From: a virus
Lineage: Duplodnaviria; Caudoviricetes
Direction: 5' to 3' (one strand)
DNA length: 64,000 nt
Virus record (IMG/VR): IMGVR_UViG_3300038968_000070
Location: 1-64,000 of that record
Shown in pieces: positions 7,323 to 8,130 of this stretch (position 1 is the first letter of the stretch; each line of letters opens with the position of its first letter). Made by a program: the position numbers and the translations under genes. The notes beneath the pieces are model-generated. The model had not been told where the DNA came from. It did no database searches and saw only the letters and a program-made list of their open reading frames with translations.

Positions 7323-7334
7323 CGGCGGGCTGAG

Positions 7335-7550
7335 TCACTCGGGCCAGCCGGCAGCCTTACGACAGGATCGACATGTCACGCTGCGCTCGGTGGCCGGGAT
7401 CCGCGTGTCCCAAGCGATCGTTGCACCGCACAGCGCGAACGGGCGCGTGCTGTGTCCGCTGAGTCGGACGGGTTGGAACCCCGGCCCGATGCGTCGTACG
7501 TGGACCACGATCGCGGCCACCGTCTCGCACGTCACCATGTTAGCCGTCAC
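7335..7550 (-). CDS. Small hypothetical Zn-binding protein
   Basis: H...LCG...VTCRSC; downstream of the tRNA. Confidence 0.45.
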   Translation of the reverse strand: MTANMVTCETVAAIVVHVRRIGPGFQPVRLSGHSTRPFALCGATIAWDTRIPATERSVTCRSCRKAAGWPE

Positions 7551-7568
7551 GGTCGTTCATCAGGTCAT

Positions 7569-7645
<77 letters not shown>

Positions 7646-7652
7646 ACAAGTC

Positions 7653-7940
7653 TCGTGTGCTCGACGCCGGCGACCAAACGACGGCAGGGATGCCAACCCC
7701 TGCAAGGTCGTCTCACGTTCGCGTTATTCAGTCAGGTCGAGGCGTCCCTCTTACCGGAGTAGTCACTGGTAGTAGATTTTTCCCCCGGGCCTCTTCTCTC
7801 GACGGACCACCGTTCTCATCGAGTCCGAGCACCTTACGCTACAAGCGAGCCTTCCAACCGCCCAAGGTGTCTGCGCGTGCCTTCCCCTCGTGACAGGGGA
7901 CTTCGGCCACGTTGCCTAGTCGACGGCGTCCAGCACACGA
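7653..7940 (-). ncRNA. Unannotated ~290-nt multibranched structured RNA
   Basis: About 27-bp closing stem whose G-U pairs are valid only on the minus strand; at least 5 internal stems; no high-GC3 ORF; ends 7 nt before tRNA-fMet. Confidence 0.7.
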
Positions 7941-7941
7941 T

Positions 7942-8072
7942 TCGGTTGTCAGAGGTGAGGCCCCGGCGTCCCCCTACCTTCTGCCGAAGCACAGGGACGC
8001 CGGGGAGTGGGTACCTAGATGAAATGACGTCGACGGGGGTTTCCGTTATGAGTGGTAACCGTCGACAACCGA
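7942..8072 (-). ncRNA. Unannotated ~130-nt structured RNA
   Basis: TCGGTTGTC/GACAACCGA closing stem, 12-bp CCCCGGCGTCCC/GGGACGCCGGGG stem, hairpin with ACTCATAAC loop. Confidence 0.55.
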
Positions 8073-8085
8073 CCCAGGTGCGAGC

Positions 8086-8130
8086 GTTGTCGCACGCACG
8101 CGCGATCCTGTCAACGTTTCTCGTACGAGA
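8086..8130 (-). promoter_or_regulatory. sigma70-type promoter for the ncRNA-tRNA unit with upstream palindrome
   Basis: TTGACA (8114-8109)-N17-GACAAC; perfect palindrome TCTCGTACGAGA at 8119-8130. Confidence 0.55.

Follow-up and report, generated by a model that had tools for sequence, protein, structure and literature searches.

The phage RNAs closest in kind to the one described here are GOLLD (RF02032) and ROOL (RF03087), which are phage-encoded, often lie beside tRNA genes (GOLLD env-38 is next to a tRNA-Met), and combine many helices, kissing loops, and A-rich elements with a function that is not known (bioRxiv 10.1101/2024.12.08.627333). The tRNA region of phage T4 likewise yields two small stable RNAs, RNAC and RNAD (species 1 and 2), whose roles are not known (PMC3014915). 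The present RNA differs from GOLLD and ROOL in size (about 290 nt, versus 580 to 800 nt), in architecture, and in being very rare (three copies). T4 RNAC and RNAD measure about 120 to 140 nt; like them, the present RNA probably matures by processing of a tRNA-containing precursor, but it has no sequence relation to either and also occurs without a tRNA. Two other systems resemble it in the stem that closes the fold. In rRNA operons, the stalks around 16S and 23S rRNA are cut by RNase III; here, too, a long imperfect duplex (21 to 26 bp) flanks a putative stable RNA that would share its transcript with a tRNA, and the duplex drifts in sequence while its pairing is kept, but its outermost 9 bp are conserved as sequence, which is unusual for a stalk that is merely thrown away, and its cleavage is presumed. 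Retron msr-msd RNAs, which often reside in phage-related DNA, are structured noncoding RNAs closed by a long inverted repeat (a1/a2); the present RNA is also closed by a long inverted repeat, but no reverse transcriptase occurs in the phage or beside any of the three copies. The RNA fits the loose kind of phage tRNA-region stable RNAs (T4 RNAC/RNAD, GOLLD, and ROOL), although its third copy has no tRNA, and we rate it as a new family within that kind that belongs to none of these. Our main reading, to which we assign a probability of roughly 0.6, is that the locus is the gene for a stand-alone, compact noncoding RNA representing a new and rare family in a small clade of high-GC phages of 124 to 132 kb.

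The DNA analyzed (the window) spans the opening 64 kb of an IMG/VR phage record that is 123.9 kb long and has direct terminal repeats and a G+C content of about 68%. Along the minus strand, an operator and a TTGACA box are followed by a leader hairpin, an extra hairpin, the RNA (7940 to 7653), and a tRNA-Met (7645 to 7569), the last lying 7 nt downstream of the RNA (Table 1). The coordinates and strand given in the preliminary description were correct: 7940 to 7653 folds on the minus strand behind a closing stem. A scan for sigma-70 consensus promoters did not call the candidate promoter region.

Table 1. Positions of the RNA, its structural elements, and neighboring features (window coordinates unless a contig is named)
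Feature	Position	Strand	Remarks
Structured RNA	7653..7940	-	288 nt, first to last base of closing stem P1
tRNA-Met(CAU), initiator-like	7569..7645	-	ARAGORN; Rfam tRNA, 61.4 bits
P1, 5′ strand	7914..7940	-	P1a 7932-7940, P1b 7924-7930, P1c 7914-7922
P1, 3′ strand	7653..7679	-	P1c 7671-7679, P1b 7663-7669, P1a 7653-7661
P2 hairpin	7879..7907	-	GCC/GGC + UCCCCU/AGGGGA; five pairs changed on both sides, 100% of cells paired
P2 loop GUCACG	7889-7894	-	Invariant
P3 hairpin	7859..7877	-	7 bp; two pairs changed on both sides; in MFE folds of L036 and G001
P3 loop ACACC	7866-7870	-	5′ partner of kissing loop PK1
P4, 3′ strand CCUU	7704..7707	-	Pairs with AAGG 7850-7853; long-range, encloses inner domain
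P9 hairpin	7684..7703	-	GCAGGG/CCCUGC, loop GNUGGCAN; two pairs changed on both sides
Inner domain	7718..7842	-	Exactly 125 nt in 3/3 phages; closed by P5, holds P6/P6a, P7, and P8
P5	closes 7718..7842	-	GCGU/ACGC + GGU/ACU (GGY/RCU across copies)
P6a hairpin	7798..7823	-	CUCGAUG/CGUCGAG; three pairs changed on both sides
GGUG in P6a loop	7808-7811	-	12-nt loop; 3′ partner of PK1
P7 stem	7754..7788	-	CCGG/CCGG; 27-nt loop with invariant GAAAAA and ACCAGUGACU
GUGAC in P7 loop	7762-7766	-	Complementary to P2 loop GUCAC; candidate PK2
P8 hairpin	7739..7750	-	Invariant loop GACG; 3/4 pairs changed on both sides
Extra G+C-rich hairpin	7961..8005	-	Between leader and RNA; window phage only, absent in L036 and L042
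Leader hairpin of transcription unit	8029..8066	-	Kept in L042, L043, and L036; one compensatory change
Candidate promoter region	8086..8130	-	Conserved across window, L042/L043, and L036
Weak -10-like hexamer	8086-8091	-	Part of candidate promoter region
TTGACA (-35 element)	8109-8114	-	Conserved, as is operator
Palindromic operator TCTCGTACGAGA	8119-8130	-	Abuts TTGACA box
G001 copy	L010:268-587	-	320 nt, directly upstream of tRNA-Met
L036 copy	L036:8791-9080	-	290 nt; no tRNA anywhere in 21.8 kb

Three copies of the RNA were found, all in related high-GC phages. Besides the window copy, there is one in G001, a 126.5-kb IMG/VR relative with 70% PolA identity that was located by a PolA scan, and one in L036, a Logan contig that was reached through a homologue of the 622-aa neighbor of the RNA and comes from a relative whose PolA is 86% identical. 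The two homologues share 65 to 68% overall identity with the window copy and with each other, and, unlike the RNA itself, their flanking genes cannot be aligned: in G001, only the RNA and the tRNA align, and the open reading frames (ORFs) in the first 20 kb of the window have no relative within 10 kb of the copy. There is one copy per genome, with no second copy detected in either full genome by pattern scans and the covariance model. That model (R1, built on the inner domain) scores 122 to 150 bits on the three copies and yielded no further matches.

Wider searches recovered little else. IMG/VR scans with single proteins from two neighboring genes found no relatives, and the PolA scans found four only, one of them a full genome; exact-pattern scans of IMG/VR viral contigs with conserved blocks of the RNA matched G001 alone. 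A pattern scan of JGI metagenomes, with a pattern blind to L036-like copies, gave five matches, all of which proved on alignment to be due to chance, and two pattern scans of GTDB genome contigs found no copy. Among the Logan/ENA contigs with homologues of the 622-aa neighbor, L036 alone carries the RNA, which is absent from L024-L035, L037-L041, and L044-L046. A separate difference among these phages lies in the UDG-PolA fusion (60734-63517, minus strand), which has 927 aa in the window phage and about 1300 aa, including a LAGLIDADG_2 domain, in relatives of 99% and 86% identity (P0002 and P0004); the longer form suggests an intein or homing-endonuclease insertion that is missing from the window phage.

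The fold consists of P1 and a five-way junction (P1, P2, P3, P4, and P9), from which P4 and P5 lead to a 125-nt inner domain organized around a four-way junction (P5, P6/6a, P7, and P8). P1 forms 25 pairs over 27 positions, interrupted by GxG and UxC mismatches, in agreement with an initial proposal that the ends pair over about 27 bp; the three G-U pairs that had been held to work only on the minus strand all lie in P1c and would indeed be A-C on the plus strand. Across the three copies, P1 measures 21 to 26 bp. P1a, its outer 9 bp (UCGUGUGCU/AGCACACGA), is nearly constant apart from a single U-A to C-G replacement, whereas P1b and P1c are unrelated in sequence from one phage to the next yet pair in every one, so that the inner 12 to 17 bp are kept as pairing only and conservation of sequence is limited to P1a. 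Such conservation fits a recognition site better than it does a stalk that is discarded.

Several of the internal stems proposed from the window alone are borne out by covariation, namely, TCCCCT/AGGGGA inside GCC/GGC (P2), GCAGGG/CCCTGC (P9), and GTCGAG/CTCGAC (P6a, with three covarying pairs). Two are not: the outer ACGAC/GTCGT stem is lost in the homologues, as is CGGAC/GTCCG, which is also incompatible with GTCGAG/CTCGAC. A third proposal, CACCTT/AAGGTG, stands in part, as it pairs in all three sequences, but a nested alternative is better supported. The CACCUU/AAGGUG pairing is used in the MFE fold of the window copy and carries one compensatory change; the nested P3/P4/P5 fold is lower in energy in each of the three copies and is part of the MFE folds of both homologues (L036 and G001), and we adopted it. 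It is possible that CACCUU/AAGGUG is an alternative conformer and that the center of the molecule takes up two conformations. P4 has 4 bp in the window copy, 6 of 7 in L036, and 8 in G001, with extensions that differ among copies. Also set aside were the stems GGAC/GUCC and UCG/CGR of the P6 region (displaced by the covarying CUCGAUG/CGUCGAG), a GCG/CGC hairpin in the P3-P4 linker, and the idea that AUGAG/GUGAG mimics a start codon for the tRNA-fMet anticodon, the bases in question being paired inside P6a.

Covariation further indicates that the P3 loop kisses the P6a loop: this contact (PK1) reads CACC/GGUG, CGUC/GACG, and CAUC/GAUG in the three phages, and two of its four pairs covary. The candidate second contact, PK2 (GUCAC/GUGAC), is invariant, and covariation thus speaks neither for nor against it. 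The P9 loop contains UGGC in all three copies, which is complementary to a GCCA 3′ end; pairing with the GCCA end of a tRNA with discriminator G73, of which the odd tRNAs elsewhere in this phage would be examples, is a speculative lead only.

Folding energies favor the minus strand (-129 kcal/mol, z = -2.85, versus -112.7 kcal/mol, z = -2.31, for the plus strand), and the z-scores across the three copies are -2.85, -3.08, and -4.30; as such values are moderate on their own in a genome of 68% G+C, the weight of support rests on the homologues. The full model comprises 67 pairs, with the parts of P1 that MAFFT misaligned left out, and every helix was checked letter by letter. Bearing in mind that the model derives from the same three sequences on which it was tested, 96.5% of its cells are paired, versus 38 to 43% when the partners are slid, and 21 pairs are changed on both sides, versus 7.6 ± 2.2 in shuffles (0 of 500 reach this value) and 2 in every slid control. 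Among 55 hand-checked core pairs, 25 vary, 19 of these being compensatory, 5 wobble-only, and 1 broken. A scan independent of the model, in which a helix had to keep at least four consecutive pairs in every copy and to covary at two or more columns, returned five helices (P2, P6a, P8, P9, and the contact between the P3 and P6a loops), against 0.48 expected (maximum of 4 in 200 column shuffles). Wobbles in the helices amount to 12 G-U versus 1 A-C in the minus-strand sense, an excess that points to a single-stranded nucleic acid of that sense; the RNA is read from the minus strand.

A protein-coding signal was sought and is absent from both composition and substitutions. Codon-phase G+C (GC3 phase) is lost over 7330-8130, which argues that this stretch is noncoding, and the same follows for the RNA from the even spread of substitutions over codon phases (34/30/27 and 27/33/30) and from the sizes of the indels among copies (32, 1, 2, 2, and 1 nt).

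Comparison with known families was equally without a match. Rfam 15, which covers GOLLD, ROOL, RNase P, tmRNA, SRP, 6S, YrlA, HEARO, group I and II introns, and small ribozymes, gave no match overlapping the RNA when the whole window was searched at the gathering score, and at an E value of ≤10 there was none to the minus-strand RNA in the window copy, L036, or G001. The only overlap at E ≤ 10 is with radC on the plus strand of G001 (12.6 bits, versus a gathering score of 40; E = 8.4); it lies on the opposite strand and is read as a chance match. ARAGORN reported only tRNAs in the window and L010, nothing in L036, and no tmRNA. With all three copies lacking a family match, compensatory changes abundant, and no coding signal, the initial view of an unrecognized, highly structured RNA and possible new class of noncoding RNA is upheld.

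Individual candidates fared no better. A retron RNA was rejected because there is no reverse transcriptase in the phage record (PF00078 had no match in all 123.9 kb, with positive controls) or among the predicted genes that adjoin the L036 copy. A bacterial Y RNA (YrlA-like) was rejected because Rfam gives no match and the phage has neither TROVE (Rsr) nor RtcB genes, a search that covers phage genes only, so that a host Rsr is possible; neither homologue has the Y-RNA-like Ro site of P1c. With the RNA alone as query, blastn found no match in GenBank phages, PLSDB plasmids, or E. coli genomes. A possible resemblance of GUAGCGUAAGG and CCAGUGAC to parts of rRNA was likewise dropped; blastn against E. 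coli genomes, including their rRNA operons, returned no match.

Comparison of the surroundings shows how the RNA relates to its tRNA neighbor. A promoter-like region and leader hairpin are common to the window, L036, and L042/L043, the last being a closer relative whose upstream RHH-like protein is 86% identical. After this leader, the window has the extra hairpin, the RNA, and tRNA-fMet; L036 has the RNA alone; and L042/L043 have tRNA-fMet alone. With G001, this makes four layouts: leader-RNA-tRNA, leader-RNA, leader-tRNA, and ORF-RNA-tRNA. Many syntenic relatives have neither RNA nor tRNA, and there an HTH gene abuts the RHH-like gene. Given this variation after a common leader, the RNA is an independent accessory module whose association with the initiator tRNA is common without being obligatory. 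A tRNA-Met follows it directly in two of the three phages, and its fold is conserved. The position for cotranscription with the initiator tRNA that the preliminary description pointed out is present in the window phage and G001 but is not a defining trait, since L036 has the RNA without a tRNA and L042/L043 the tRNA without the RNA.

Several further observations concern these loci. The compensatory change in the leader hairpin (compared with L042:5600-5775 and L036:9100-9160) is from U-A to C-G. Where tRNA-fMet follows (window and L042/L043), the leader loop contains the anticodon-loop sequence of that tRNA, CUCAUAAC; in L036, which has no tRNA, CUCAUAAC is missing from the loop. The tRNA-Met of the window phage has three G-C pairs in its anticodon stem, leaves position 1:72 unpaired with A1 opposite A72 (C1xA72 is usual in bacterial initiator tRNAs), and has an encoded CCA; that of G001 has U38 in its anticodon loop. 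Directly upstream of the RNA, G001 has an Arg-rich ORF of 48 codons (L010:600-760, minus strand) ending in seven Arg, whose product may be a small basic RNA-binding peptide, and the operator is partly retained ahead of this ORF. In RNA-less relatives (L026:9500-9990), an AT-rich stretch followed by tandem GGATCCGGCC-like repeats sits between the RHH-like gene and a 623-aa gene.

Other explanations of the locus differ in what they make of these features. The two loop-loop complementarities, one of them covarying, could instead join separate molecules, with CACC/GGUG and GUCAC/GUGAC pairing in trans to assemble a ring or cage as in ROOL and GOLLD. The tRNA-Met setting resembles that of GOLLD env-38 and ROOL, the study cited for these RNAs (bioRxiv 10.1101/2024.12.08.627333) found that supposedly intramolecular kissing loops were intermolecular bridges, and covariation is blind to the distinction between cis and trans; however, a 290-nt RNA is far from the 580 to 800 nt of those RNAs, neither of their models matches, and both kisses link an outer hairpin to a hairpin of the inner domain, an arrangement compatible with a single compact fold as well. 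We consider such self-assembly unlikely. It is a little less likely still that the RNA is a cis-acting leader, either a riboswitch-like sensor or a processive antiterminator of the put/EAR type that controls downstream genes. Its position 150 to 200 nt downstream of a conserved operator/promoter-like region, together with two mutually exclusive central folds that each show covariation, would suit such a leader, but the downstream neighbor is a different one each time (tRNA-fMet, tRNA-Met with an ORF of 42 aa, or a DUF551 gene at a distance of 150 nt), there is no terminator or expression platform after the RNA, and the long closing stem insulates it from its flanks.

A ribozyme that cleaves itself or acts on the unusual tRNAs of the phage, a ribozyme being among the possibilities raised in the preliminary description, would fit a fold that is compact, complex, and pseudoknotted, unpaired nucleotides that never vary, and a tRNA neighbor in a phage with aberrant tRNAs, but none of the observations points to one, and it is improbable in view of the lack of any match to a ribozyme family at E ≤ 10, the absence of RNase P P4 and CR-I/CR-V signatures, and the L036 copy, which has no adjoining tRNA. 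An element acting at the DNA level (a MITE-like insertion with terminal inverted repeats, a cruciform, or a recombination site, with an incidental RNA fold) would account for the conservation of the outermost 9 to 11 bp of the inverted repeat as sequence and for a module that occurs whole or not at all and has a different context in G001. Against it are the single copy per genome and the lack of copies in phage, plasmid, or E. coli collections, the absence of a target-site duplication, the 12 G-U versus 1 A-C wobbles, and compensatory changes in eight internal hairpins plus a loop-loop contact, for which a transposon end has no need; we regard this explanation as very improbable and rejected a MITE or other transposable element, as there is one copy per genome and the stem beyond its outer 9 bp is kept as pairing only. 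Least credible, with a chance close to negligible, is a fortuitous fold of G+C-rich intergenic DNA or a small protein gene: the z-scores are moderate and two of the three copies have an open antisense frame, but covariation is well above controls, substitutions are even over codon phases, indels are not multiples of three, and there is no GC3 phase.

Under the preferred reading, that of a gene for a stand-alone noncoding RNA, the product is probably a trans-acting, stable RNA module that is excised from a precursor. Transcription would proceed from a repressor-controlled promoter about 150 nt upstream, and the RNA would be made within a stable-RNA precursor consisting of the leader, the RNA, and then the tRNA. 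By analogy with rRNA operons, a double-strand-specific nuclease of the RNase III type would cut the long P1 stalk, and RNase P would free the tRNA; the ends of the transcript, cleavage by RNase III, and how stable the RNA is are all inferred. A second clamp, between the P2 and P7 loops, may form. The mature particle would act in trans, neither by antisense pairing nor by regulation in cis, and its invariant loops and junction strands (GAAAAA, ACCAGUGACU, CUGAAUAACGCGAA, UGGCA, and GACG) would offer a host or phage factor a surface to bind. More speculatively, the RNA might represent a new functional class, a compact particle held together by two loop-loop clamps and made in a repressor-controlled early unit shared with the initiator tRNA, that is either catalytic or binds the ribosome, an initiation factor, RNA polymerase, or an RNase. 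This proposal is quite doubtful; if it is true, the particle and the initiator tRNA might retune host translation initiation toward the leaderless mRNAs of the phage.

Large, intricate RNAs without a known role are rare, and past cases turned out to be ribozymes, riboswitches, and, recently, RNA-only cages. At about 290 nt (125 nt for its inner core) and with a tertiary contact backed by covariation, the present RNA is of a size that suits probing, crystallography, and cryo-EM. Its natural presence/absence polymorphism in otherwise syntenic phages would, given a host, make a loss-of-function comparison straightforward. Finally, the RNA adds to growing evidence that the tRNA regions of phages hold many uncatalogued stable RNAs.
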